64,000 nt of DNA from assembly GCA_964016885.1 (NCBI GenBank), contig OZ024749.1, positions 43,214,001-43,278,000 of the forward strand. The letters run 5' to 3'. The notes beneath the pieces are model-generated. The model had not been told where the DNA came from and made no database searches. It worked only from the letters and a program-made list of their open reading frames with translations. Made by a program: the position numbers and the translations under genes. Below are positions 1,194-64,000 of the stretch, piece by piece. The stretch comes from Eledone cirrhosa. Taxonomy: Eukaryota. Within the stretch, counting starts at the first letter, position 1; every line of letters begins with the position of its first letter.

Positions 1194-1280
<87 letters not shown>

Positions 1281-1282
<2 letters not shown>

Positions 1283-1395
1283 CGAAGGAAATGTGGTAAG
1301 GAACCATGCGTTACACCCGGGAAACTTATACTAAATTGAAGTGAAAACCAACAGGTGCGTGTGTTTTTACTGGAAACATGACCCTCCGAAAGTAT

Positions 1396-1402
<7 letters not shown>
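1281..1402. mobile_element. Chimeric TA-embedded element: family A long end joined to family B short end
   Basis: 1281-1306 matches the A terminus (5464, 48097); 1332-1402 is the reverse complement of about 22467-22537; (TA)n on both sides. Confidence 0.8.
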
Positions 1403-1438
<36 letters not shown>

Positions 1439-2918: not shown

Positions 2919-3250
2919 TTATATCTAGTCTACTACCGTAAGTATTGGATACTCTGGTGCGTTATGTTCCACTTGGTATCTTACCACATCATCTTTGTTC
3001 TCTAGCTGCTACTTCCGTAGTGGAGCACTCTTCCACCCATACCACAATCAAATCCCGGCAATACTACCAGGTTGCTGCTTCTTATTAGAATGTTAACCCA
3101 CCATGCGCAAACATACAACCGACTTTTCGTCGAAGATACCTCTTGATGATTTCAGCTAGATTCTCACCGTTCTAGTACTGGTGGCTTAGTTCGGATATAT
3201 ATGTTGAAACAGCCGGAGCTCAGCCGTTGGGGTCCTCACTCTTTTCGTAT
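2919..3250 (+). mobile_element. Diverged, circularly permuted family A monomer with decayed hammerhead
   Basis: Begins with the A tail (CTACTACCGTAAGTATTG...CTTACCACATC), then ~140 nt of new sequence, TTGATGA 3143, GAAA 3206 and GAGCTCAGCCGTTGGGGTCC, which precedes the tail in other A copies. Confidence 0.7.
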
Positions 3251-4868: not shown

Positions 4869-5750
<882 letters not shown>

Positions 5751-12380: not shown

Positions 12381-12406
12381 ACTGGAAGAAAACAATTCAG
12401 TTATTA

Positions 12407-12485
12407 TTGGGTCGTCAAGTATGACATTTGTAGAATTTGTTTTTTTTTCTAAAAATTCCTACAAACTTCATACTTGACGACCCAA
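12407..12485. mobile_element. ~80-bp Tc1/mariner-type MITE
   Basis: TIRs TTGGGTCGTCAAGTATGACATTTGTAG / CTACAAACTTCATACTTGACGACCCAA with TA on both sides. Confidence 0.85.
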
Positions 12486-12618
12486 TATTAAGAAGAATTG
12501 AGATTAATTCATGCGAGATTCCACAGCTCTGGCATCACTCCTTTATAGTATGCCTATTAACCTTTCAGCCGACCCTAGTATATACGCAAGTAGACTCAAC
12601 CTTAAAGAATTCACACAG

Positions 12619-12704
<86 letters not shown>

Positions 12705-12964
12705 GTGTGTTTATGTATGTGTATGAGTCTGTTAGTTAGATTACACTAGATGGTGCTATACACCTCGTTGAACACACGATGTGATGCATGATTCAAAAGT
12801 GTAGAATTATCAACTGAAGAGATGTATGAAGGCAGCAACATTGTATCACTAGGGTAACCGTGTTGAGTGAAAAATCAATATAATAAACATTTATATTCAG
12901 TACATATCATTCCCTCGAAAATTCGACTCGAAACTAATGACATTATGTAATGATAAGGTGTATG

Positions 12965-13134
12965 TGGATTGGCAGTATCGGTAGAGAGTCGTACGCCATG
13001 CTTTCCAGCTTTACGATCTGAGTTCAAATCCCGCCGAGGTTGACTTTGCCTTTCATCCTTACGGGGTCGATAAAATAAAGTACCAGTAATGCCCTGGGTA
13101 ATTGCTGGCCTTGTGCCTAAAGTAGAAACAATTA
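12965..13134 (+). mobile_element. SINE family 1
   Basis: Consensus match; 18-bp TSD ATTATGTAATGATAAGGT at 12942-12959 and 13131-13148. Confidence 0.92.
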
Positions 13135-13344
13135 TGTAATGATAAGGTTGGAATCCGAAATTATGAGCTCTTCTTATGCGTATATACGATTAAAGGAAAA
13201 GAGATAAAGTCACTATATTACTTAAAGAAAGAAATTAGCGCTTTATATAGGCTGCTTAACGACAAACTGAGTAGAAATTATGTAAAATAAAAAGCAGACG
13301 ATGGGTAATAGAAAGATAATAGTGAAAATATATATTATATCGGT

Positions 13345-13658: not shown

Positions 13659-13660
<2 letters not shown>

Positions 13661-13847
13661 AACGAGTAGGACCCCGACGGCTGAGGTCAAGCCGTTTCGA
13701 CGGCTAATTCTGGACTAAATTAGCCGTCGAAACGGCTTGAGCTCAGCCGTCGGGGTCCTACTCGTTCCTATTACCCACTCTACTACCCTAAGTATTGAGT
13801 ACTTTGGTGCGTTATGGTCCACCTGGTTCCTTACCACATTTCCTTCG

Positions 13848-13849
<2 letters not shown>
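13659..13849. mobile_element. Family A fold-back element
   Basis: 53-bp arms 13657-13709 and 13718-13770 (one mismatch) plus ~79 nt tail; (TA)n flanks. Confidence 0.9.
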
Positions 13850-13916
<67 letters not shown>

Positions 13917-14429: not shown

Positions 14430-14519
14430 GTAATATAGTAATAATAATAAGATCCCGTTAAGGGTGAAAGCAGCGATTCTTTGCTTAATAAACTTTAATC
14501 TGTTATTTTAATAAATAAA
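14430..14519 (+). mobile_element. Family G short arm
   Basis: GATCCCGTTAAGGGTGAAAGCAGCGATTCTTTGCTTAA...TTTTAATAAATA running into (TA)n. Confidence 0.75.
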
Positions 14520-15718: not shown

Positions 15719-15830
15719 GCGGTTCAGCCTAAACAATTTTGAAAGCAATCAAAAGGGTTTAAGCTCGACCGTTCGGCAGTCAATTCTATAATACCTACAC
15801 AATACTTATAGTAGAAATCATTATTATTTG

Positions 15831-16011
15831 GGCGGTGGATTGGCTGAGTCGGTAAAGGGTCGGACGCCTTACTTTCCAGCATAGAGTTATGATCTGAGTT
15901 CAAATCCCGCCGAGGTTAACTTTGCCTTTCGCCCTTACTGGGTCGATAAAATAAAGTACCAGTAATGCACTGCGTTAATTGCTGGCATTGTGCCAAAAGT
16001 AGAAACAATTA
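15831..16011 (+). mobile_element. SINE family 1, full length
   Basis: Consensus match; TSD ATTATTATTTGG at 15820-15831 and 16008-16019. Confidence 0.92.
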
Positions 16012-16534
16012 TTATTTGGCCATGTTTTCATATTTTACCACCAGCTTCATAAGTTTATTTCCTGAGCCCCACGGTATTTGATTTTTTTTTTCTATCTGTA
16101 ATACTTAAACAAAAGTAATAAGTTGGAAGATCAAACTTGGTAAAGATACGCCAAGATATGTCATCGGTTCAGCTTTTGAACGATAGTTATTTTACTACAG
16201 GATTTATTTCAATTGTTAATATTTCAAATATTTCTTATAATATTGTTAAAAGACTTAAACTGCACGGCAGATGTGAGAAGGATACCGAGAAGGATTTGTA
16301 ATAGCAGCAGTAGAAAGAAGATGATGATGAAGAAGAAGAAGAAGAAGAAGAAGAAGAAGAAGAAGAAGAAGAAATTGATAGGCAGGTATATATACGTACA
16401 AAAATACATACACACACACACACATAGATACACATGCATACATATATACAAATATATACACGAACACATAGATATATATATATATGTACTAACACATACA
16501 CAAGCACACACATATATTTATATGTGTGTGCTTG

Positions 16535-16704
16535 TATTTATTAAAATAACACAATTAAAGTTTAAGCAAAGAATCGGTGCTTTCACCCTTAACGGGATCT
16601 TCTGAAACTCATATTTGCTCTACAGGCTTATATATATATTAATTTATATATATAATCCTTATCGAGCCCTCTTCGGATTTTAGTCTTCACATTTATTATT
16701 ACTA
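16535..16704. mobile_element. Family G element (inverted short arm plus tail)
   Basis: Matches 3715-3784 then jumps to the tail 3840-3930. Confidence 0.8.
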
Positions 16705-16721
16705 CATATATATATATATAT

Positions 16722-16870
16722 GGGAAAATGTTTAACCCCTCAAGCCATCGAAACGGCTTGAGCTCTGCCGTCAGGGTTAAACATTTTCATATTACCCAGT
16801 CTACTACCCTAAGTATTGAGTACTCTGGTGCGTTATCGTCCATCTGATTCCTTGCCACACCTCCTTCGTT
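16722..16870. mobile_element. Family A element (subvariant)
   Basis: GAAAATGTTTAACCC/GGGTTAAACATTTTC arms, CGAAACGGCTTGAGCTC and A tail; (TA)n flanks. Confidence 0.85.
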
Positions 16871-16897
16871 ATATATATATATATATAGATATATATA

Positions 16898-16975
<78 letters not shown>

Positions 16976-16990
16976 ATATATATATATTTC

Positions 16991-17018
16991 ATTTGACCCT
17001 CCCAAAGTATAACAATAT
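16991..17018 (+). mobile_element. Family B short-end fragment
   Basis: TGACCCTCCCAAAGTATAACAAT between TA runs, same end as 1402 and 34617. Confidence 0.7.
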
Positions 17019-17033
17019 ATATATATATATAAT

Positions 17034-17207
17034 ATCCAGGAAACTCCAACCGTTAAGGTTGTCTTTTTTTCCGGGTATGTCAATATTTATTTATAAAACA
17101 AATCTGTATTTTATCTGATGACAGCGCACCATAATTTGCATTGGTGGCCCTTGAAATATGTATAATAAAATAAATATGGTTTTATAAATATAGTTTCCAT
17201 TTATTAA

Positions 17208-17213
<6 letters not shown>
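17034..17213 (+). mobile_element. Family D-type single arm with hammerhead at 17107-17172
   Basis: TATTTTAT-CTGATGA(17115)-CAGCGCACCA...TGGTGGCCCTT-GAAA(17153)-TATGTA-TA-ATAAAATA; downstream nearly identical to 17556-17604. Confidence 0.85.
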
Positions 17214-17240
<27 letters not shown>

Positions 17241-17690
17241 CAATATTAAATAAATGGAAACTATATTTATAAAACCATATTTATTTCATTATATATATTT
17301 CAGGGATATCATATTAACAATATGCTATGCCTTCCTCAGACAAAATACAATATAAACAGTTTTATAGATAAATAGATTTGACATACCGTAACAACATCGA
17401 CTTGTATTTGTATTCGACTGCCAATTCAACTTTTCAAATACAAGTCGATGTTGTTACGGTATGTCAAATCTATTTATCTATAAAACTGTTTATATTGTAT
17501 TTTGTCTGAGGAAGGCATAGCATATTGTTAATATGATATCCCTGAAATATATATAATGAAATAAATATGGTTTTATAAATATAGTTTCCATTTATTTAAT
17601 ATTGTATATATACTCCAAATACTTGTCGAGTGCTTTTATATCAGTTATAAATATTTACTAGTTGTAACCCAACAATTTAAATATAACTTT

Positions 17691-17692
<2 letters not shown>
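17241..17692. mobile_element. Family D fold-back element, perfect 170-bp arms
   Basis: Arms 17241-17410 and 17435-17604 are exact reverse complements; 88-nt tail with ACTCC(17612)...GAGTGCT(17628); (TA)n flanks. Confidence 0.93.
17498..17563 (+). ncRNA. Minimal type-I hammerhead ribozyme (family D); identical copy on minus strand at 17282-17347
   Basis: TATTTTGT-CTGAGGA(17506)-AGGCATAGCATATT GTT AATATGATATCCCT-GAAA(17544)-TATATA-TA-ATGAAATA. Confidence 0.87.
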
Positions 17693-20790: not shown

Positions 20791-20797
20791 CAATATA

Positions 20798-20880
20798 TTG
20801 TGTTGTCAAGTATGACATTTGTAGAAATCTGGTTTTTTTTTGTCTTCGAATCTATACAAATCTCATACTTGACGGCCACA
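20798..20880. mobile_element. ~80-bp mariner-type MITE
   Basis: Same TIRs as 12407, diverged; TA flanks. Confidence 0.75.
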
Positions 20881-20954: not shown

Positions 20955-21420
20955 TGAATGCCGTCGAAATGTCAACATAATGAGATATTCGATAGAAATG
21001 CCGTCAAAATGTCAACATAATGAAATTGTTGATAGAAATGCCGTCAAAATGTCAACATAATGAAATGCCATTAAAATATAAATATAATGAGATTTTTTAC
21101 AGAAATGGCATTAAAATATAAATATAATGACTTTTTGACAGAAATGCAATTAAAATATAAATATGATAAAATGTTTGACAGAAATGCCATTAAAATATGA
21201 AAATAATGAGGTTTTTGACAGGAATGGATATTCAAAATATAAATATAATGAGATTTTTCACAGAAATGCCATTAAAATAAATATAAGATTTTTTGTCAGA
21301 AATGTCATTAAAATATAAACATAATGAGATGTTTTACAAAAACGCCATTAAAATATAAATATGATGAGATTATTGACAGAAATGCCATTAAAAAACAAAT
21401 ATGATGCTTTTGACAACAGA
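20955..21420. repeat. ~39-bp minisatellite
   Basis: About 12 units resembling GAAATGCCATTAAAATATAAATATAATGAGATTTTTGACA. Confidence 0.9.
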
Positions 21421-21555
21421 ATAGTCTAATGATGGCATATAAACCCCAGGACGGACAACATTTCCCCAGTACAAGTGAGGGGTCGAACCCACACATATTA
21501 TCCCCAGGCATTCAAATAACATATTCGTTTAATGTTATTATTGTTATTATTATTC

Positions 21556-22410: not shown

Positions 22411-22413
<3 letters not shown>

Positions 22414-22885
22414 TTTCTGAATTTGTTTAGCAAGATTCTTTATCTGAAAACGTGTGTTGAAACCGATATTGTTATACTTTGGGAGGGTCATGTTGCCAAT
22501 TAGAAACACACGCACCAGTTGCCTTCACTTCAATTTATTATAATAAATTTATAAATTTAGGAATTTATAAATTGCCGGTTGGTTGGTTGGTTCCACAACC
22601 AGATGATTGTTTATATATTGTCAAATTTCGTTCGTCACACATTCTGTGACCTCTTCAGTGACTGGGGATTCTTTTCTTTGTTTTTGTGCCTCTCCTTTGT
22701 TCTGCCTACGCCATCTTGTTTTTGTGTGTGTGTTGTGTGCTTAGTTTGCGCATGTGTTACATCCGGGTGTCTGTGTGTGTTTATATTCGTTTATTTATTT
22801 ACATCTTACTGGTTGGTTGTTTGTTCTATGTGCGTGTGTGTTTTCATTTTGTCCTTAATTGTAAGTTGTGATGTTGCTGTGCAAA

Positions 22886-22890
<5 letters not shown>
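22411..22890 (-). mobile_element. Family B element, longest copy, with damaged hammerhead at 22620-22662
   Basis: Minus strand GTCA-CTGAAGA-GGTCACAGAATGTGTGAC-GAAC-GAAA-TT-TGAC (stem III collapsed); 3' end matches 34470-34570; (TA)n flanks. Confidence 0.75.
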
Positions 22891-26100: not shown

Positions 26101-26454
<354 letters not shown>

Positions 26455-33354: not shown

Positions 33355-33735
33355 AAGGAGGGTTAAACTACACAGAATTACATAATGAAAGGAGGGTTAA
33401 CACATACAGAGTTACATAATGGAAGGAGGTTTAAACTATACAGAGTTACATAATTGTTTTTACATTTGGCACAAGGCCAGCAATTTTCCAGTGTATTACT
33501 GGTACTTTATTTTATCGACCCCGAAAGGATGAAAGGCAAAGTTAACCTCAGCGGGATTTGAATTCAGAATGGCAAGGACCGTAACTCTATACGTCAAAGC
33601 ATGGCGTCCGACCCTCTTCCGATACTGCCAATCTTCCGCCCTTTTACAGAGTTATACAGAGTTACATAATGAAAGGAGGGTTAAACTACACAGAGTTACA
33701 TAATGAAAGGAGGGTTAAACTACACAGAGTTACAT
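33355..33735. repeat. ~33-bp minisatellite interrupted by a SINE
   Basis: Unit AAAGGAGGGTTAAACTACACAGAGTTACATAATG on both sides of the SINE. Confidence 0.88.
33451..33640 (-). mobile_element. SINE family 1, full length
   Basis: Consensus match. Confidence 0.92.
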
Positions 33736-34169: not shown

Positions 34170-34393
<224 letters not shown>

Positions 34394-34469: not shown

Positions 34470-34472
<3 letters not shown>

Positions 34473-34617
34473 GTTTCTGAATTTGTTTAGCAAGATTCTT
34501 TATCTGAAAACGTGTGTTGAAACCGATATTGTTATACTTTGGGAGGGTCATGTTGCCAATAAGAAACACATGTGTGTTTCTTATTGGCAACATGACCCTC
34601 CCAAAGTATAACAATAT
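34470..34617. mobile_element. Family B fold-back element
   Basis: Tail identical to 22411-22466, then perfect 45-bp arms 34526-34570 and 34573-34617. Confidence 0.88.
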
Positions 34618-36410: not shown

Positions 36411-36601
36411 TAATTGTTTCTACGTTTGGCACAAGGCCAGTAAAATACCCAGTGCATTACTGGTACTTTATTTTATCGACTCCGTAAGGATGAAAGGCAA
36501 AGTTAACCTCGGCGGGTGTTGTACTCAGAATGGCAAGGGCCGTAACTCTATACGTCAAAGCATGGCGTCCGACCCTCTATCGATACTGCCAATCCTCCGC
36601 C
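36411..36601 (-). mobile_element. SINE family 1, full length
   Basis: Consensus match inside a TA tract. Confidence 0.92.
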
Positions 36602-36643
<42 letters not shown>

Positions 36644-36723: not shown

Positions 36724-37114
36724 GAATGTATGTATGTGTATGTGTGTGTGCTCAATACACTAAGGCAGAGCTAAACATTGTAATCAAATGTACATCCAAT
36801 GTATTTCCACTTAGTTCAAATATACCAACAATAATATAAACAACTGTAGCTCCTCAGATATATTTCCTACGTATGTATGTTCACATTTATAATGGTTTCA
36901 CTAGAATGTCGGCGTTAGATTTACTCGCTATTAACTTTCATTGTTGTTGTTGATTATGAATAAAGTTGGATGGGAATACAAGTATAGTATATTGTATCTG
37001 ATATGCATAATTATTTATTAAAATCCCGAATGATATAAAAGCTACGATAAACATTCTTACAATGGAAAACCTCAAGTTAAAACATTAATAATGCATGACA
37101 TTATGAAGGTCAAT

Positions 37115-37294
37115 AATTGTTTCTACTTTTGGCACAAGGCCAGCAATTATCCAGTACATTACTGGTACTTTATTTTATCGACCCCATAAGGATGAAAGGC
37201 AAAGTTAACCTCGGCGGGATTTGAACTCAGAATGGCAAGGGCCGTAACTCTATGCGTCAAAGCATGGCGTCCAACCCTCTACCGATACTGCCAA
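37115..37294 (-). mobile_element. SINE family 1
   Basis: Consensus match; TSD ATGAAGGTCAATAAT on both sides. Confidence 0.92.
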
Positions 37295-37893: not shown

Positions 37894-38234
37894 TGTTCGA
37901 GGATAATCCTGAAAGGAGGCACAATTAAATATATGAAGTTCTCACTTCAGTTCCTGTCATACTGACATTCTGTAACAATCTGACCTAGAATTCTCTGTTC
38001 ATATAAATGGATTATATGATTTCTTTTCCTGTGCAAAATCTGCCTTTGTTTCTATTTCTATAATACTTTACAATACATAACAATATCAAGGTCAATGATG
38101 TATTTAAACAAAGCAATAATTTGTATGTTTCTCAGAAAAAATGGTACATATTAAATGGAGAATAGCGAAGATTATTTAGCCTAAAAACCATTCTGAAAAG
38201 CCAAACATTTTTTGGATTTTTGTGGTCTTCTAAA

Positions 38235-38424
38235 TAAGTGTTTCTACTTTTGGCACAAGGCCAGCAATTATCCCAGTGTATTACTGGTACTTTATTTTAT
38301 CGACCCCGTAAGGATGAAAGGCAAAGTTAACCTCGGCTGGATTTGAACTCAGTCCGTAAAAGGACATAACTGTGCTGCAAAGCATGACGTCCGACCCTCT
38401 ACCGATACTGCCAATCCAACGCCC
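38235..38424 (-). mobile_element. SINE family 1, full length
   Basis: Consensus match; TSD TCTTCTAAATAA. Confidence 0.92.
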
Positions 38425-38526
38425 ATGATCTTCTAAATAATATCGAGATAATTTCCAGAGTAATATAATACAGTGACACAACTTATATTTCGGTATACTG
38501 ATTATTTTATTATGTGAATGCTGTTT

Positions 38527-40349: not shown

Positions 40350-40430
40350 TTGGGTTGCACAAATATGAAATTTGTAGAAAAAATAAAATTTGTTAATGCC
40401 TCACTACAAATTTAATATTTGACGTCCCAA
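40350..40430. mobile_element. ~80-bp mariner-type MITE, with an extra solo TIR at 40560-40585
   Basis: TTGGGTTGCACAAATATGAAATTTGTAG / CTACAAATTTAATATTTGACGTCCCAA, TA flanks. Confidence 0.78.
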
Positions 40431-40517
40431 TATATATATATATATTCATTAATTAAGCAAAGCAAGACCACAAATTTCACAAGGAAGATATTATTAAAAG
40501 ATTGGTTACTCTTGAAC

Positions 40518-40563
<46 letters not shown>

Positions 40564-40595
40564 GACGTCAAATATTAAATTTGTATGTTTCGCGG

Positions 40596-40650
<55 letters not shown>

Positions 40651-41050
40651 GTGACGAAACATAAGTCAATTGCATGAACTTACAATCCTGTATTTACTGC
40701 TATATATATTTCGATGATAGCCATTGAATGGCTATGACCTCATCAGGCATTTAGTCAGTTGTTAGATATGCCAGCTCTGTGTTTATAGTGTTGATGGTAT
40801 CAGAATCTTGGGACATATGGACACTATAAACACAGAGCTGGCATATCTAAGAACTGACTAACTGCCTGATGAGGTCATAGCCATTGAATGGCTATCATCG
40901 AAATATATATAGCAGTAAATAAAGGATTATGAGTTCATGCAATTGACTTATGTTTCGTCACTATTATAACTCCGGAACTTATATCTTCGTTGAGTGCTCC
41001 CTATCCGCATACTGAAGTACTGGATTTTACCAACACTTACTTTCTTGCTT
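40651..41050. mobile_element. Family E fold-back element
   Basis: ~143-bp arms 40649-40791 and 40821-40963 with a few mismatches; ~87 nt tail with ACTCC(40969)...GAGTGCT(40992); (TA)n flanks. Confidence 0.92.
40861..40916 (+). ncRNA. Minimal type-I hammerhead ribozyme (family E); mirror copy on minus strand at 40696-40749
   Basis: ACTGC-CTGATGA(40866)-GGTCATAGCCATTGAATGGCTATCATC-GAAA(40900)-TATATA-TA-GCAGT; predicted cut after 40911. Confidence 0.92.
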
Positions 41051-42260: not shown

Positions 42261-42428
42261 GTATCCTTAATATTAATGTAGTGATTGACAGGATCATTAG
42301 ACAATAGCACAAAATACTTTGTGGAACATTTTCCCGGCTCATAGCCTCATGAGTGCAAAAGCCAGACTGTTACTGGTGCCATTGTAGTCGGCTTCTCCCC
42401 ACAAATCGCTAGTCTTGTGTCTTAGTTA

Positions 42429-42507
42429 TTGGGTCCTCAGGTATGAAATTTGTAAAGATTTGTGAAATGAAAACAAATTTCTACACATTTCATATTTGAC
42501 GACCCAA
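42429..42507. mobile_element. ~80-bp mariner-type MITE
   Basis: Same TIR family, TA flanks. Confidence 0.78.
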
Positions 42508-42524
42508 TAGAAACAATTATTTAA

Positions 42525-46761: not shown

Positions 46762-46898
46762 TTGAACAAGATACTTTATTTCACGTTGCCCCTTCTACCT
46801 GGAGTTGCGACCGATAGATAGTATTAGCAATTGGAAAGACCAACGGAAACATTGTTTCCTCGGTCTGATTTGACGAATATCGATCGACTGTCGATATA
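46762..46898 (+). mobile_element. SINE family 3 body, headless
   Basis: Close reverse complement of 47800-47936. Confidence 0.8.
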
Positions 46899-47799: not shown

Positions 47800-48020
47800 T
47801 ATATCGACATTCGATCGACTTTCGTCAAATCGGACCGAGGAAACAATGTTTCCATCGGTCTTTCCAATTGCTGATACTGTCTATCGGTCGCAACTCCAGG
47901 TAGAAAGTGCAACGTGAAATAAAGTATCTTGTTCAAGGATATAAAGCATATCCTTGGATATTCGAACTCACAACCTCACGATTTCGAATCCAATTCTCTA
48001 ACCACTCAGCCACGCGCCTT
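47800..48020 (-). mobile_element. tRNA-derived SINE family 3
   Basis: Minus strand head GGCGCGTGGCTGAGTGGTTAG...GAGTTCGAATATCC then CTTGAACAAGATACTTTATTTCACGTTGC. Confidence 0.85.
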
Positions 48021-48068: not shown

Positions 48069-48096
48069 GTATATATATATATGTATATATATATAT

Positions 48097-48434
<338 letters not shown>

Positions 48435-50019: not shown

Positions 50020-50346
50020 ACGTGGAAGAAAAAGACCAAAAAAAAGAAAAAATTCAGGAATTCCATTTGCATGGACAATATGGAGAATACTAAGAACAAA
50101 GTCTTTAATTCTATGGTAGACCCTTGTGATTACAAATACTTCAGCAACAGTGACAACGTTAGCTGTGGTAATACCAGCAGATGTAACTATAGTAATAAAT
50201 AGAGTGTTTGTGATAGAAAGAAAAAAATGATATTCACACGAGCTCTTTGTGCACGCATTGGCTTTGCGCTCAATATTATGGCTAAGAATGGAATGCATAC
50301 AATTATGCATCAGAAATACGAAAGGAATTTGATTTCCAAAACAAAT

Positions 50347-50535
50347 AATTGTTTCTACTTCTGGCACAAGGCCAGCAATTAACCAGTGTATTACTGGTAC
50401 TTTATTTTATCGACCCCGTAAGGATGAAAGACAAAGTTAACCCCGGCAGGATTTGAACTCAGAATGGAAAGGGCCGTAACTCTTTGCGTCAAAGCATAGT
50501 ATCCGACCCTCTACCGATACTGCCAATCCACCTCC
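50347..50535 (-). mobile_element. SINE family 1, full length
   Basis: Consensus match; TSD CCAAAACAAATAAT at 50336 and 50536. Confidence 0.92.
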
Positions 50536-50742
50536 CAAAACAAATAATACAAGTTGAAATATCAAAAACAAACGAAGGGAAACTCAATTTTCGTTATATA
50601 CTAGATCACCAGTGACCCGTGGGGTCAAGTTCACTTCAAAATATTTTTCAAAAATCATGTTCATAAAATAATTTTTAAATAATAAAAATATACACAGACA
50701 TGTATAAAATGTGAAATGAAACTGGAAGGCCCATATATAGAC

Positions 50743-50840
<98 letters not shown>

Positions 50841-50878
50841 GTGTGTGGGTTTCTGTGATCTATATGCACTGGTCATAG

Positions 50879-50909
<31 letters not shown>

Positions 50910-50944
50910 CACACATACTCATATATATATATATATATACACAA

Positions 50945-51490
50945 CAACACCATCAGTTCTCTTCCTGAATATGTGGCACCACAACTAGATGACCTTCAAC
51001 CAACTATCCCTTTTCAACAAGATGATGCATCACGACATTGGGGACTGCACGTTCGTGGGTTCCTAAATCAAATAGTTCCAGACCGGTGGATTGGAAGGAA
51101 TGGCTCAATTCCCTGGCCACCTCGTTCACCAGATATCACTCCACAGGACTTCTTTCTATGGGGTTATGTTAAAGATATAGTATATCGAACAAAGATACGG
51201 GACATCACTTATCTAAAGCAAAAGATCACTGATGCTATTGGAACCATTGATGAGGCTATGCTACAGCAAACATGGCAGTAAATCAAGTACGTCATGATGT
51301 GCTTCGTACAACTAACGGTGCCCATATATATAAAAAAACTTCAATAAAAAAAAACTTCAATAAAAAAAACTTCAATAAAAAAAAACTTCAATATTTGCTC
51401 CTCATTTTGTAACAATTTCCACATATTTGTCTGTTTATTTGCTTTTGTAATATTTTTTTTAAATTGTAAAGACTCTTTATGAACACCCTG
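50945..51490 (+). mobile_element. Tc1/mariner transposase remnant, DD41D (rosa-type), with right TIR
   Basis: FQQD...WIGR...WPPRSPDITPQDFFLWGYVK with 41 residues between the last two catalytic Asp; premature stop at 51281; end CTTTATGAACACCCTG-TA. Confidence 0.9.
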
Positions 51491-56924: not shown

Positions 56925-57757
56925 TAGGGCGGGTAAAATTCCCGAGATCCATGGACGAGTTCTCTCCAGCAGTCTCTGTCCCTCATTATCGCTGCCATGT
57001 CCTGCGTCTCCAATAGACCTTAGGGCATCAACATACGTTAACCTTGGTCTTCCTCTTCCAGTGTGTCCATGTAGAGGCTCCCACAGGAGAACTGAGTGCA
57101 GTGTCAACTCTGGATGTCGGTGAGCATGTCCAGCTAACCTCAGTCTTCTCTGTGTCACTTTTCAGCTGACTTCTGGGAGGCTCCCGTACAGCTCTGAATT
57201 CTTCATCCTCGGTGTATACTGATTAATGTTCAGAGCCATCCTCAGCATTCTCGTGTAGCACCCATCCACCATCTGAGTGAGTTGCTTTATCAGTCTCCAA
57301 GTCTCAGACCTGTACAGCAGCACAGACTCCACTACAGCAATGAAGAGGCGGATCTTCAAGTCTTCACGAAGGTCCGACTTCCACACCGATCTCAAGCTGT
57401 GGCACGCCGCCCAGGCTTTGCTCTTCTTCTCAACCACATCATCTTCCGTATTCCCAATCTTTGCTCCCAAATACAGGAAGTCCTCAAATAATTCCAGTGG
57501 CTTCCAGCCGAAATTAGTAATTCCCTCTGGCTTCTCAACATTCTCAGCCCCACACTCATCGACGCAGTCTCAACTTCCTGCATCAAATCCTCTGCCTCCT
57601 TCACAGTATTTGTCACCAAAACTATGTAGTCGGCAAATTCAGCATCCGATATCTTTTTCGCCTTAACTCTCCTGCTCTGAGCCGGTGTTACGGTAAAGCC
57701 AGAGTCCTGGTGTTCCTCCAGTGCAAGGCGCATACAATAGTCCACTACGATGATAAA
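56925..57757 (-). mobile_element. 5'-truncated RTE-clade LINE remnant (RT C-terminal half)
   Basis: FIIVVDY...EFADYIVL (FADD motif decayed), YLG, KIRLFIAVVESVLLY.SETW, RRLRLAGH, RGRPRLTYVD; frameshift and stop present. Confidence 0.9.
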
Positions 57758-57989
57758 TATATATATATATATATATAAATGTAATCTGAGTTTTTCGAAT
57801 ATTAATAATAATATTCGATTCGTTTGCAATTATTTTTTTTTATTTATTATTATTTTTATTTTTTTTATATATATACATTTAGGTTTGTTGGTTCACCACT
57901 GGATAGAACTGGTCATTCCGTATAGTCAACCGTGTGGTCCGAGTAGTGAGGTAGACTTAATTACTGCAGCTAATATCAGACTGAGGGGC

Positions 57990-58136
<147 letters not shown>

Positions 58137-59585
58137 TATTCTAGCTTGATCATGTGAATCCACAGGTGAAATTCCAGAGTAAATAATTACTTCATAATAA
58201 ATAATATTATTAATCTCTAATTCAGTATTGAGAATGTTTCCCCATTCATCTCTCTCTCTCTATATATATATATATATAATATATATGTGTGTATGTGTAT
58301 AAATATATATATATATATATAGTAGTATAATTAATGTAAAGTTTTCTTAGATGTGTAATAAATGTGTGATAAGCCCTTCAGAAAGCCGGAACAATACAGT
58401 AGAAATATATAAAGGGCAACAATTGACAAATATAACAAAACAAAGTAACATTTTTTTATCAAGTATATTTCAACATAATATTCCAGGGTCCAACCCTCTT
58501 TTCAAATGCAAAACAAAACCGAACGCTGTGTCCATCTCAAACACTCCTCCATAAAGTAAATAATATCAAATGTCATATTGTTCATATTATTTTAAAGAAA
58601 CAAATAGTTAACACACACGTATATATTTTCACAAAAATCATATGTAAATATTTGCATTTCAAAATAACCTTAATATTTCATTAACATTTCCCTATACAGC
58701 TTAAAATATGCTGCTTTTCCTATATCTTCTTACAAACCAGCTATATCTTCTTTGCTTTTTCCTTCAGCACATGCGTCTCTCCACATTTCATTTTTTATGC
58801 GCTACGTTGTTAGCATAACAACTTATTAAATGTGACAAATATTATATAATGACAATACACCGATATTTTCTTATTTTATATTCATACTCACTTATAATTT
58901 GCGGCCACCCTAAAAGAATTATAATAAACCCTCTAATACCTCATTATTGAACATTTTCATAATATTTCTTAGAATTATAAGTTTATAATTATATTAGAGC
59001 ATAACGTATATTTTTACATTTGCAAGCTTTGTTTTAGGTTTCTAAAATAACACACCTTTAGTTCCTCTCTATCTCCTGTCATATTAATGGTTTTCTTTGT
59101 GCAGAAACATTAATGTCAATATCAATATAATTATATTAATATTCAATACTTTAATCATTTCCTTTACTGCAAATTATAATGTGTTTGCAATAAAATACTT
59201 CCTCGGTTACTAATATTTTAAAAATAATAAAATCCGACATTTTATATCATATTTATTAGCCATAAAAAACATTTTACTAAGTCTATATATACCTGTTTTA
59301 CACGCTACACAATTACTGATATTTCCTATTATTTGTCTTAAAATATGAATATGTTATTACGTATGCATATATGTAACAATTAAATAACATTACAACGCCA
59401 TGTAACTCACCACATACTGTTTTCTTAACACAGGCACGCACAGACAGAGGCACATACACACGGACGCAAAGATGGAGGTGAATATGTCTGTGTTATTATA
59501 CCAGTGTTTGTAAATATATGTTACGATATCCTTAAATTGTGTTATTTGATTCTGAATCAACGAAAGTAGCTTTCATTATATAATT

Positions 59586-59769
59586 GGGGTGAATTGGCAG
59601 TATCGGTGGAGGGTCGGACATGCTTTCCAGCATAGTTACGTCCCTTTGCGGTCTGAGTTCAAATCCCGCCGAGGTTAACTTTGCCTTTCATCCTTACGGG
59701 GTCGATAAAATAAAGTACCAGTAATGTACTGGTGGAATGCTGGCCTTGTGCCGAAAATAGAAACAATTA
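59586..59769 (+). mobile_element. SINE family 1, full length
   Basis: Consensus match; TSD ATTATATAAT. Confidence 0.92.
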
Positions 59770-59823
59770 TATAATATTGACCTATGCAATTAGCATGCTA
59801 TCAATTACCTACTTAACAATAGT

Positions 59824-60071: not shown

Positions 60072-60419
60072 AGAACATACAGCAGATGTACTCCTAACTC
60101 AGAACATACAGCAGATGTACTCCTAACTCAGAACATACAACAGATGTTCTCCTAACTCAGAACATACAGCAGATGAACTCCTAACTCAGAACATACAGCA
60201 GATGAACTCCTAACTCAGAACATACAGCAGATGTACTCCTAACTCAGAACATACAGCAGATGTACTCCTAACTCAGAACATACAGCAGATGAACTCCTAA
60301 CTCAGAACATACAGCAGATGTTCTCCTAACTCAGAACATACAGCAGATGAACTCCTAACTCAGAACATACAGCAGATGAACTCCTAACTCAGAACATACA
60401 GCAAATGAACTCCTAACTC
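60072..60419. repeat. 29-bp minisatellite, 12 units
   Basis: AGAACATACAGCAGATGWWCTCCTAACTC head to tail with no spacers. Confidence 0.97.
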
Positions 60420-62624
60420 CTCGACAATGTTCCAAACCTACGACTATGTAGAAGACCAAGATATTTCAATATAAAAAAAACGTATATAGTTTATTTTACA
60501 ATTCATGGTGTAAATGTATGTAATGCTACACAAACATATCTACATACATATGAACCAAACTATAAAGCCATTAAAAATAAATACCGCATTAAGCCTCCTC
60601 ATCTCAAAGGCTTGGGATTCGAATCATCTTTAGTGTCAAGAAAATAACGTGAAGAATTGTACTTCTTTTTCTTTCGATGTTTAAAATAAAACGCTTTTGA
60701 AGAAAACAGTAAATTTTAGAATTCTGATTATTTGAATCGTGCAAGAAAATGTTAATAGTTTATTTCACTGCTAGCTTCAATAAAATCGCATATTGTTAAT
60801 CGAAAACGAAAAAAAAGTTAGGCACTCTCATAAAATAACTTTTGCAAAGTTTAATAGGCGAAGCATTAACTCCATAAAGATTTTAATGTGAATTATATTG
60901 CTCCAGTTCTCATTTTATGTTTACGACTTAAATTTAACTGCCGTATTGACCTTCATGTAAATCCCAAAACCTTTGTTTCCATTAATGTTCTTATCTCTTC
61001 ATCAATATCCATTTCCTTTCATGATTAATATTTTATATGTCATTTAAACGTTCTACCGAAATATTTATAAGAATACTGAAAGTTAAAGTCAAGCGACAAT
61101 TTTGTTGTCGAGATATTTATATCCATGATGAAATTATATTGATATGATTTGATCTTGCAACTGAAAAACTATAAATGTTATTTCCTTTAACTGTTATATA
61201 TAAAAATCTTCCTTCGACCTAAGTATTGTGAGTGAAATTAGATGGGCTTAAACTGTATATAATTCCGTCGCAGAAATTGTACATCTACTCGATGTAGCCA
61301 TGTGTTAATCAAATTCTAAGTGAAAATTGCTTAAAGGATACACGTATCTATGTGGAGTCAAAGATTTAAACTTTAATTTCCGTATCAGAGCGCTGTTCAT
61401 CAAACATCTAAATGCTCATCGCCTAAAGAGACGGAGGATTCGTCACAGCAAAAGGTACGTGGGATATAAAAGTACATATAGTAAGCTTCAAAAAGCCATA
61501 AATCATATTGTTGCAATCGCAACCCAGCTGGGATTTACAGCAGGATAAAAACATAGAAAATAGCCTAATGGCTAAATAAGCCTTTACTTAATCAACATAA
61601 CTGTTAGCTGTAATATTTCATCATTTGTTCTATCCTCGATGTCTTATACATAATTTAGTGTTGGAGAGGCGGTAATGGGATTTGTTTTCCTTTAACCACG
61701 TAGTTTTCTACGTCTCTAACTTAAAAAAAAAATACCTCATGCAAACCAAACCAAATATGAGCTACAGTCGACCATCCATTCGTCGATGTCACGATTCGTT
61801 ACCTTTTTATCTCATATTTCTTTCTCATTACGGTATTATTCACTTGGGGGTATATTTCCCCCTCAACAGGTATTCTCGGATTAAACTTAACTTAAATGAA
61901 ACAGAAAATGACTTCGTATCACGTAAACCTACTTACGCTAATCATACTAGCCACAACAGGTTGTATATATATATATGCTTGTGTGTACGTCTGTGCGTGT
62001 GTGTGTGTGTACTGTATGTTGAAGGATCAAGAATATTCCACCCTCGGTGACGCAGTTCAATTTTGAAATGATAATATTGAAAACCCTGCCCCCCCCCCCC
62101 CCAAAAAAAAAACAGGAATCGTTACAAACTATTACTAAGTAGTACTGTGTGTTGAATATCCTCGCCTATCATGCAGGGAGACCAGTGCTCCATTGCCTAC
62201 CGTGAAGACTTATGCTTTTACTGACAGTCTCCCATTATGGAAACAGCCCGTTACTGGGAGAGGTTACTGAATACAAGTGTAAACCGTTTGTGGTTTGGTG
62301 GCGTATTTTTGTTATAATTGGCATTTCTATTTTTCCATTTACAGTCGGGATAAAAGGTTTGTTTATACGATCTAATCGAACCATAGACGAAGTACTACAG
62401 GTGCACATGCGTCAATGCATTGGTAGAAACGTTAGCGCGTCTCATAACATTCTTTGTGTTAATTCTCCTGGATAATCTCCAAGGTTAATTTTGCTCTTCA
62501 TCTTCCCATGCCCCACCCCCACCTCCAAATTTCTGGCCCTGTGTCTAAATTAGAACCCAATAGAAATATGGTATGAAGATATATGTGTATTACAGTGAGT
62601 AGGTTCTCTGAGATTATCAATATA

Positions 62625-62702
62625 TTGGATCGTCAAGTATGAAATCTGTAGAAATATGTAGAGAAAAAGGAAATTTCTACAAATTTCGTACTTGACTACA
62701 AA
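62625..62702. mobile_element. ~80-bp mariner-type MITE
   Basis: Same TIR family, TA flanks. Confidence 0.75.
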
Positions 62703-63366
62703 TAGATTAATAGGCGAAATCCCATTAGAGGTGTTTAAAATATTAGCACAGACAGCAAGGGAGATAACTTGCATTTAAATCAGTTTTGGACATATAAGCT
62801 GATATATATTTATGACTCATTTAGCTATGATGTTGTCTAAATATATGCATAACCTCTAAAGTAAAAGATTGAATGCTATTAGAACATCTAAAACACTATC
62901 TCCATAAAATAATCAAGAGAAATCTGTGAAAATAAAATAATATAATAAAATACAATAAAATAAATAGGTATAAAAATGTATATAAAAATAAACAAATTAA
63001 TCACCGGAATGTATAATCATTACAAGCCGATGTTTTTGTATCAAAAACATACTCCGTAAATGTATAGAAAAATACTGGGGGTAGGGGGTGGGGGGGTGGG
63101 GGGGTTGAAATAACAACAAGGAGAAAAGTGGGGCTTATTTTTAATTAGCTTCGGTAGCAGCATTATGATAATTGGATGTTTTCTTTCATACACCAATGAA
63201 CAGGGTTATTAAAATTAGGAATAAGGTCGATGGCGGTAGTTTACGAGGTTACGATGATGATGATAGTGAAGTAGAGGTGAAGGAGGACGAGGAGGGGGGT
63301 CTCTAATATTAATGAGAGAGAAAAAATTAAATTATAATAATGATAATATTAGTGATGGTACAACAT

Positions 63367-63450: not shown

Positions 63451-63741
63451 CTTTATTCTTTGAGTCTCAGTCATTCATGTTATTTAACTGGAAAGTTTGT
63501 TGAAATGAATATCAAGCCACTACCTGCAGCCTCAGATATTCAGGACGTATCGGAGCGTTCTTGCTGTTCCCAGCAAGCATGCCTTTTGAAGTGTTCCAAA
63601 AAGCGGGGCTGGACTAATCTTATTTACCCATCCTTGGAAACTCTTTGAGATAGTCCCTAGTGCGCCTATGACAATCGGGACAACTTTGACTTCATGGCAG
63701 TTCCAAATCCTTTTTACCTCCCACTTTAAGTCCTGGTATCG
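63451..63741 (-). mobile_element. R4/Dong-like non-LTR retrotransposon 3' end
   Basis: RYQDLKWEVKRIW...VVPIVIGALGT...LQKACLLGTARTLRYVL* typical of the restriction-like endonuclease C-terminus; ~80 nt 3' UTR; (TAA)n on both sides. Confidence 0.85.
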
Positions 63742-63759
63742 TATTATTATTATTATTAT

Positions 63760-63803
<44 letters not shown>

Positions 63804-63944
63804 TCACTGCCATTTCAATAACTACTGTTGTAGCTAATATCGCTCCTAAAATGTAGAAAGAAGAAAGAAAGTGAAAGAGAAGGAGGAGACGGAAGAGGGG
63901 GGGAGAAGAAGAAGAAGAAGAAGAAGAAGAAGAAGAAGAAGAAG

Positions 63945-63985
<41 letters not shown>

Positions 63986-64000
63986 GATCCCGTTATTTAC

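Follow-up and report, generated by a model that had tools for sequence, protein, structure and literature searches.

Penelope-like elements (PLEs) leave inverted, 5′-truncated copies with a tail on one end and a bias for (TA)n targets (PMC8557442), together with palindromic joints and an end repeat that overlaps the start of the ORF (PMC3846280) and minimal hammerhead ribozymes with a palindromic stem III (PMC4209133). A purified PLE protein, predicted to be a dimer, cuts and extends both target strands and starts at two internal sites of the RNA that bound the tail (PMC11167929). In a rotifer, no cross-mobilization between PLE types was reported (PMC3846280), and the literature concedes that the way in which PLEs produce inverted, tailed insertions has yet to be settled (PMC8557442; PMC11167929). 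In Octopus vulgaris, recently active Penelope-like families have been counted, and the repeat library of that study might already contain the two families considered here (PMC13282606).

Here, we analyse a short insert in Eledone cirrhosa whose outward-facing ends belong to two unrelated families, the long terminus of family A on the left and the short terminus of family B on the right. The window, that is, the whole stretch of DNA analysed, comprises 64,000 nt (assembly GCA_964016885.1, contig OZ024749.1, positions 43,214,001 to 43,278,000); all coordinates below refer to it. The letters A and B come from an earlier sequence-only reading, which took the insert for a back-to-back joint primed on two RNAs, whereas the letters C to K were assigned in the present analysis. 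Most likely, the insert is a by-product of fusion in a TA hot spot.

Architecture of the insert

The non-repetitive insert spans 118 nt (1282-1399), or 122-123 nt if the TA bases common with the adjoining tracts are included, and lies between (TA)n at 1251-1281 and 1400-1435 without any internal TA tract, much as the sequence-only reading had described it. Its four segments, their orientations and a CA overlap can be read directly: the end of an A tail, the CA overlap, upstream B sequence, an inversion joint and a B arm follow one another from left to right (Table 1). The A piece, with its RNA sense on the minus strand and its 3′ end at the left tract, is identical over 27/27 positions to A copies at 13824-13850 and 48096-48122 (E 6e-9 within the window), and matches two further copies at 26/27 (5463-5489) and 23/27 (16845-16871). 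Thus, the long terminus of A had been identified correctly, but only the outermost 27 nt of the tail are present and B makes up the longer share of the insert. The B arm is 87% identical to 22467-22543 over 78 columns (68/76 aligned bases, E 7e-21), with shorter matches to 34572-34616 (41/44), 16994-17017 (23/24) and 34527-34570, and stops exactly at the short terminus, again as previously read. It also contains an ATG from which, in full B copies, 27 codons stay open across the tail. The insert as a whole folds no better than its shuffles (z 0.64).

Table 1. Segments of the insert, its targets and the reference copies in the window
Feature	Position	Strand	Description
Left target, compound microsatellite	1197..1281	.	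(CA)n 1197-1250, then (TA)n 1251-1281
Family A long terminus	1280..1306	-	outermost 27 nt of the A tail (80 nt); element +53..+80 from the A short end
CA overlap of the A piece and the upstream B piece	1305..1306	.	2 nt; same-sense microhomology joint
Upstream family B piece (probable)	1305..1321	-	element -301..-284; in the sense of A, inverted relative to the B arm; 15/17 to 22751-22767
B/B inversion joint, tentative	1317..1325	+	from alignment and inference
Family B arm	1326..1402	+	ends exactly at the B short terminus; element -77..0
Right target, (TA)n	1400..1435	.	tract adjoining the insert
A insert and B short-end-only stub in one TA tract (16870-16987)	16722..17014	.	unfused state; A/B pair 16869/16988
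Second mixed back-to-back junction	40561..40598	.	28-nt inverted copy of the MITE-like end 40405-40432 plus about 14 nt of a family F short end
Long single-arm B copy	22412..22888	-	long end 22412, short end near 22467, hammerhead; 22751-22767 the probable source of the 17-nt piece
Ordinary B long+short inverted insert	34471..34614	.	reference
Ordinary A long+short inverted insert	13659..13848	.	reference; 3′ hammerhead half
Further ordinary A long+short inserts	5465-5591, 16722-16869, 48098-48264	.	reference

Between the A and B matches lie 19 nt (1307-1325), not a linker of about 25 nt as had been estimated, and most of them resemble upstream B. The stretch 22751-22767 of the long B copy is the sole 17-mer with at most 4 mismatches to 1305-1321 on either strand of the whole window, and the match was recovered by an independent local alignment. 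For 1305-1325, its score was reached by 13/5000 shuffled queries, 3/2000 shuffled B copies, 74/3878 window k-mers and 47/5513 non-repetitive window k-mers, i.e., at rates of 0.15-2%; without the shared CA (1307-1325), the nulls are weaker, at 189/5000, 46/2000, 402/3763 and 484/5704, respectively (2-11%). Two other sources of the 19 nt were considered and rejected, namely, fold-back of A, which provides a match of only 7 nt (score 7 against 11 for B), and the local flanks (best score 6 against 11). On this alignment, 1305-1321 is likely, though not certain, to derive from upstream B. Because the presumed linker would then be inverted upstream B, co-linear with A, the back-to-back joint is probably a joint of B with B, and A probably meets B through a same-sense, 2-nt microhomology join. 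The four bases 1322-1325 belong to no assigned segment or to a weak continuation of the B sense sequence: in an alternative alignment, 1314-1325 continues the B sense across a 26-nt gap (8/12, a weak match), which would tentatively place a CCGG overlap (1317-1320) at the inversion joint. The picture of two families standing back to back thus holds for the outward-facing ends of unrelated families, but probably not for the joint itself. In a two-RNA chimera, segments of opposite orientation would each start at one end of the target, as the A and B pieces do, and the inversion joint would lie directly between the cDNAs of the two RNAs; here, with moderate statistical support, the 17-nt B piece intervenes.

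Families A and B and their setting

By their sequence features, A and B behave as putative PLE ends, combining a hammerhead motif, a tail on one arm, inverted arms and a (TA)n target. The tails (A, 80 nt; B, 56 nt) are present on one end only, and TA runs adjoin the young A and B termini. All four young A inserts and one of the three other B inserts are two-armed with the 3′ ends outward, the remaining two B inserts being single arms. In B, an ATG located 25 nt before the short end is followed by 27 codons that remain open to the long end, compared with 12 and 22 open codons in Pen2a_Av (PMC3846280). A hammerhead descriptor, built from the consensus and with one core base loosened after family C had been inspected, matches 9 sites of the window, each lying within one of the families B-G and K, compared with an average of 0.125 over 40 shuffles. 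Family B carries a minimal type I hammerhead with a palindromic stem III (core at 22658 on the minus strand, cut near 22624, stem I of 4 bp and stem II of 6 bp), and the A arms hold only the 3′ half (GAAA, stem III with a palindromic loop, and the cleavage triplet); all four young A copies are truncated so as to lack the 5′ core, and the descriptor finds no match in them. The stem III palindromes of A and B differ. Of 408 Rfam matches over the whole window, the 150 listed are all microsatellite or hairpin matches below gathering scores, with no hammerhead among them, nor is there one among the 2 and 1 chance matches of two focused Rfam scans; folding of six ribozyme regions (z 0.32 to -1.73) carries no weight either way. 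Membership among the PLEs is not proven, because the window holds no ORF for a telomerase-like reverse transcriptase with a GIY-YIG domain (none among 70 window ORFs of at least 120 aa) and the B terminal peptide, a very short query of 38-40 aa, has no protein match (0/7 candidates scored; 0 matches in 1.84 billion). Nor does the window contain a full element, such as a master copy of partial tandem pLTR-ORF-pLTR structure. A Pfam scan of 7 stretches (ORFs or related) returned two sub-threshold matches only, and exact-pattern scans of bacterial and archaeal genomes returned 0 matches for the B end and 0 for the A end.

Other identities for the two families were rejected. A and B do not have the matching terminal inverted repeats at both ends that mark MITEs or Tc1/mariner-type DNA transposons, their ends being offset by a fixed tail and their inner joints varying between copies. 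Nor are they parts of one parent element, which would have undone the reading of the insert as mixed: a separate long end, short end and ribozyme region can be assigned to each, and the 479-nt B copy contains no match to A. An A-like unit at 2927-3245 does not link them either, because the 11 nt that it has in common with B are attained in 25/300 shuffles. This unit is older and permuted, with the tail first and the ribozyme 3′ half and short end last, an order as expected for a tandem-transcript monomer or a non-autonomous derivative. In two of the four A inserts (5575-5591 and 16722-16740), the short arm starts at most 2 nt from the predicted ribozyme cut and the long arm runs through the cleavage site, a pattern absent from the other families that would be compatible with one cleaved and one uncleaved template. 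A degenerate 9-nt motif, defined post hoc, has 16 occurrences in the window, and seven families that are otherwise unrelated (A, C, D, E, F, G and K) account for 14 of these with their tails (3894, 4976, 5518, 5958, 7955, 8633, 12087, 13795, 16662, 16816, 17626, 26372, 40990 and 48151); a candidate protein-binding or initiation signal, it is absent from B, in contrast to A and the six other families.

The window, with about 31% G+C, is crowded with microsatellites, which dominate the output of a general repeat finder, and many of its (TA)n tracts carry short inserts of recurring families. Among 24 listed inserts, 8/23 neighbour pairs are parted only by dinucleotide runs, 6 of these pairs clearly joining different families, and 43/242 tract ends adjoin a listed insert. 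At 16535-17692, four families (C, A, B, E, E) contribute six inserts with only TA runs between them, which marks an insertion hot spot. Elements of about 80-90 nt, TA-flanked and with terminal inverted repeats of about 30 nt, lie at 12401-12491, 20796-20870, 40350-40432, 42426-42511 and 62622-62706; we take them to be mariner-type and MITE-like. An abundant, dispersed, SINE-like family of about 190 nt includes copies at 466-866, 12964-13140, 15810-16017, 33446-33641, 36413-36603, 37112-37294, 38231-38428, 50339-50539 and 59565-59775, among others. Inverted arms of 133 nt (46762-46894 and 47804-47936), 92% identical, TA-flanked and about 900 nt apart, delimit an element with long inverted ends, and minisatellite arrays occupy 60072-60419 and 20957-21421, with units of about 29/58 nt and 40 nt. 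Broken ORF pieces are reminiscent of a non-LTR reverse transcriptase region (57162-57829, minus strand), a Tc1/mariner transposase (50859-51281, plus strand) and an R4-type endonuclease end (63532-63996, minus strand), Pfam giving sub-threshold matches only for such pieces.

Same-family inserts provide the baseline for arm geometry. Alignment of 22 inserts to family references yielded 17 two-armed same-family inversions, 3 single arms and 2 mixed inserts; the 17 represent 7 families within 64 kb, and 15 of them are clean combinations of a long and a short arm, with 2 irregular. In four C inserts (14430-14518, 16535-16705, 26327-26415 and 34274-34390), the arms have at most 4 nt of element coordinates in common, which excludes fold-back of a single cDNA for these inserts unless sequence was lost later. 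In twin priming as originally described for L1, two reverse-transcription reactions take place at one break on one RNA, and an L1-like reaction of this kind can suffice for the four C inserts. In two of them, the long arm extends no further than the short start site, a pattern like that of twin priming on a single RNA; the hammerhead core of family C is a variant. Two C inserts also have long-end stubs of 19 and 51 nt, comparable to the 27-nt A stub. Eleven inserts are testable for the pairing of arms (A ×4, B, D ×2, E, G ×2 and C 3718), in that the arms overlap and another copy is available for comparison, with F and E 7887 left out. In 10/11, all but C 3718, the arms match each other best or equally, although for B and one D insert the matching depends on a single site. 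With three A subfamilies in the window, random pairing of RNAs is not supported, because 10/11 inserts have arms of one subfamily; such arms could stem from the same template, from the same source locus or from later homogenisation of the arms.

How the mixed insert may have arisen

The account that we tentatively prefer, while rating it at somewhat below even chances, is an inverted B insertion of which the outer left part was replaced, in a separate step, by 27 nt of A. Initially, B would have entered a (TA)n tract, where reverse transcription would have extended one target strand from the long start and the other from the short start, giving a long arm, reaching to at least -301, head to head with a short arm; this step is modelled on the same-family inserts and the known biochemistry of PLEs. 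Subsequently, A, which targets the same tracts, would have inserted at the left tract, where either a 27-nt A cDNA joined the downstream DNA through the CA microhomology, with deletion of about 340 nt of the B long arm, or a complete A insert was later fused to the B insert by microhomology-mediated deletion. We infer both the order of the events and the deletion. The 17-nt piece points in this direction, being apparently B-derived and co-linear with A, which places the inversion joint within B, and so do the one-subfamily arms of 10/11 testable inserts despite three A subfamilies. Different families do pile into one tract, including A and B themselves (Table 1), and a B long arm can be long enough, that of 22412-22888 reaching -423. 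Microhomology-mediated deletion of Penelope copies is on record together with the lack of cross-mobilization between PLE types (PMC3846280), and 5′-truncated L1 insertion can be accompanied by target deletion and microhomology, with deletions of 0-20 bp (PMC11702581).

The same scheme has its costs. It calls for the loss of a whole TA tract or of about 340 nt ending close to the inversion joint, and a deletion ending at most 17 nt from that joint within an arm of at least 357 nt is unlikely to occur by chance (about 5%, by our estimate). No second same-sense fusion of two families was found among the 22 inserts examined. A short templated patch would arise naturally in a single event, and, given the C stubs of 19 and 51 nt, the 27-nt stub would fit a primary insertion as well. 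The B origin of the piece rests on 15/17 bases, with nulls of 2-11% when the shared CA is left out. At 12/95 positions, the B parts and the long B copy disagree, whereas the A part shows 0/27 differences (Fisher p ~0.04), as would fit a B that is older than A; identity among the other three B inserts is 98-100%. As a test of age, this divergence is weak, because young A inserts with matching arms are themselves 6-16% apart between subfamilies, and the B arm could equally belong to a young, separate B subfamily.

That two RNAs were copied at one break, in either of two forms, is a possibility we regard as open to doubt, though a substantial one. In the form that fares better, which taken alone we consider rather unlikely, a single TA break would have been primed on A at the left (long start) and on B at the right (short start); after 27 nt, the A cDNA would have switched through the CA microhomology to upstream B RNA, of which 17 nt were copied before annealing to the B cDNA. 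Such an event would agree with the long-plus-short rule seen in 15/17 two-armed same-family inserts, with both ends of the insert at exact termini, and a short stub followed by a short patch would be natural. The purified PLE protein works on both strands and from two start sites and is predicted to be a dimer (PMC11167929), so that priming on both target strands, already invoked in the sequence-only reading, is genuine PLE biochemistry, and antisense L1 chimeras have been attributed to twin priming on a second RNA (PMC13174262). Against it stand the one-subfamily arms of 10/11 inserts, the absence from B of the tail motif common to A, C, D, E, F, G and K, and the reliance on one example. Moreover, with differing stem III palindromes, ribozyme-mediated pairing of A and B RNAs would not be expected under the dimer model (PMC4209133). 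The broader proposition, that one and the same (TA)n break can be used by RNPs from two unrelated PLE families, which each prime one strand at their own start site and keep the long/short asymmetry while the reverse transcriptase jumps between RNAs, is rather doubtful too, and a single junction does not prove that two RNAs were copied together.

A single event on one RNA would also do if, upon insertion of B, the opposite broken (TA)n end had been patched by copying an A copy that adjoins a TA tract elsewhere in the genome, and had then been joined to B; we hold this to be improbable. A junction of this general kind exists at 40561-40598, one half of which matches the adjacent MITE-like end at 28/28 positions, compared with 19-25/28 for six other ends (the value of 19 coming from an off-register comparison), whereas the 9-nt core of its F half is found only there and in two F arms. 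Because one half is thus DNA-templated, mixed back-to-back geometry needs no two RNAs. With 43/242 tract ends next to a listed insert, copying of a recognisable terminus would not be rare, but no A copy is near 1281, the nearest young one lying at 5465, whereas the example at 40561 was copied from 130 nt away. The latter junction, with neighbours at 40350-40432 and 40651-41049, looks as though DNA flanking a TA break had been copied by snap-back.

The second two-RNA form, a direct meeting of A and B cDNAs with 19 nt of untemplated or locally templated filler and a coincidental match to B, appears very unlikely. Short fillers do occur at other joints (e.g., 48207-48213), 1307-1313 equals 7 nt of the opposite strand of A, and the linker-only nulls reach 2-11%, but of all sequence in the 64 kb, it is the partner family that supplies the best match, with a score of 11, compared with 7 among the A copies and 6 in the flanks. 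Still less credible is a recombinant source element, whose RNA had upstream B fused to the A tail end and was copied in inverted fashion from the same template: the A and upstream-B pieces are co-linear as in one RNA, but the joint occurs once in the window, and a fused arm devoid of B -284..0 would need a tandem transcript to yield two arms. Least probable of all is an artefact in which reads were joined across similar TA-flanked repeats, since the joints lie in complex sequence outside the TA runs and the B arm has variants of its own, even if palindromes and long TA tracts are error-prone and assembly problems are noted by Craig et al. (PMC8557442).

Returning to the two-step origin, the claims of the sequence-only reading can be put in their place. 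Fold-back of a single cDNA, which it dismissed, indeed cannot produce the insert. The bimolecular mechanism that it put forward in exchange is contradicted by the one-subfamily arms of the testable same-family inserts, and its suggestion that the families share machinery finds no direct support, B lacking the motif common to A and six other families. It had also named two insertions followed by loss as the outcome that would overturn it; the structure observed is as expected from such a history, although a single event with a template jump gives it as well.

Comparison with described systems

Like non-LTR retrozymes, which are PLE-derived, A and B are non-coding, and B carries a type I hammerhead, of which A has the 3′ half, but retrozymes form head-to-tail tandem arrays, whereas A and B occur as inverted, dispersed fragments (10.64898/2026.07.22.740005). 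With serial insertion into microsatellite hot spots followed by microhomology-mediated deletion, the locus has in common the co-linear 2-nt joint and the shared tracts, and microhomology deletions of Penelope copies have been described (PMC3846280). L1 twin priming and the chimeras of L1 with antisense RNAs (5S, tRNA and U5) similarly combine opposite segments, one break and microhomology; for the L1 chimeras, target-site duplications and presence/absence across species established that each was a single event (PMC13174262 and PMC11702581), whereas here the TA tracts hide any duplication. Unlike the L1 chimeras, the insert has a second segment that begins at a defined terminus of its element, as well as a third joint, which is co-linear.

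A close resemblance is that to the canonical endonuclease-bearing PLEs (Penelope/Poseidon and Neptune), with which A and B have in common head-to-head arms, a tail on one arm, palindromes at several joints and a (TA)n target; B adds a minimal type I hammerhead with a palindromic stem III and a candidate ORF start in the end repeat. The long-plus-short rule and priming on both strands are known PLE features as well, because the two start sites of the purified protein bound the tail (PMC11167929). The tails of 56 nt (B) and 80 nt (A) are longer than the 30-40 nt of published PLEs, and no clade is assigned to families with no ORF in the window. In contrast to canonical PLEs, one outer end of the insert 1282-1399 belongs to another family; the titles and abstract beginnings of the literature searched, from which subscription journals were largely absent, describe no mixed-family PLE junction. 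Should mixed long-plus-short pairs prove frequent and single-step, PLE integration would be both two-template and cross-family; otherwise, such pairs would be by-products of many families crowding into TA tracts. To judge by the 17 two-armed inserts, from 7 families, in 64 kb, the data needed to settle the mechanism of PLE insertion are contained in this genome. If co-integration of two families is true, mixed junctions would provide a genomic read-out of a two-template, dimeric PLE integration complex and of co-integration across families, for which no evidence emerged in a rotifer (PMC3846280).
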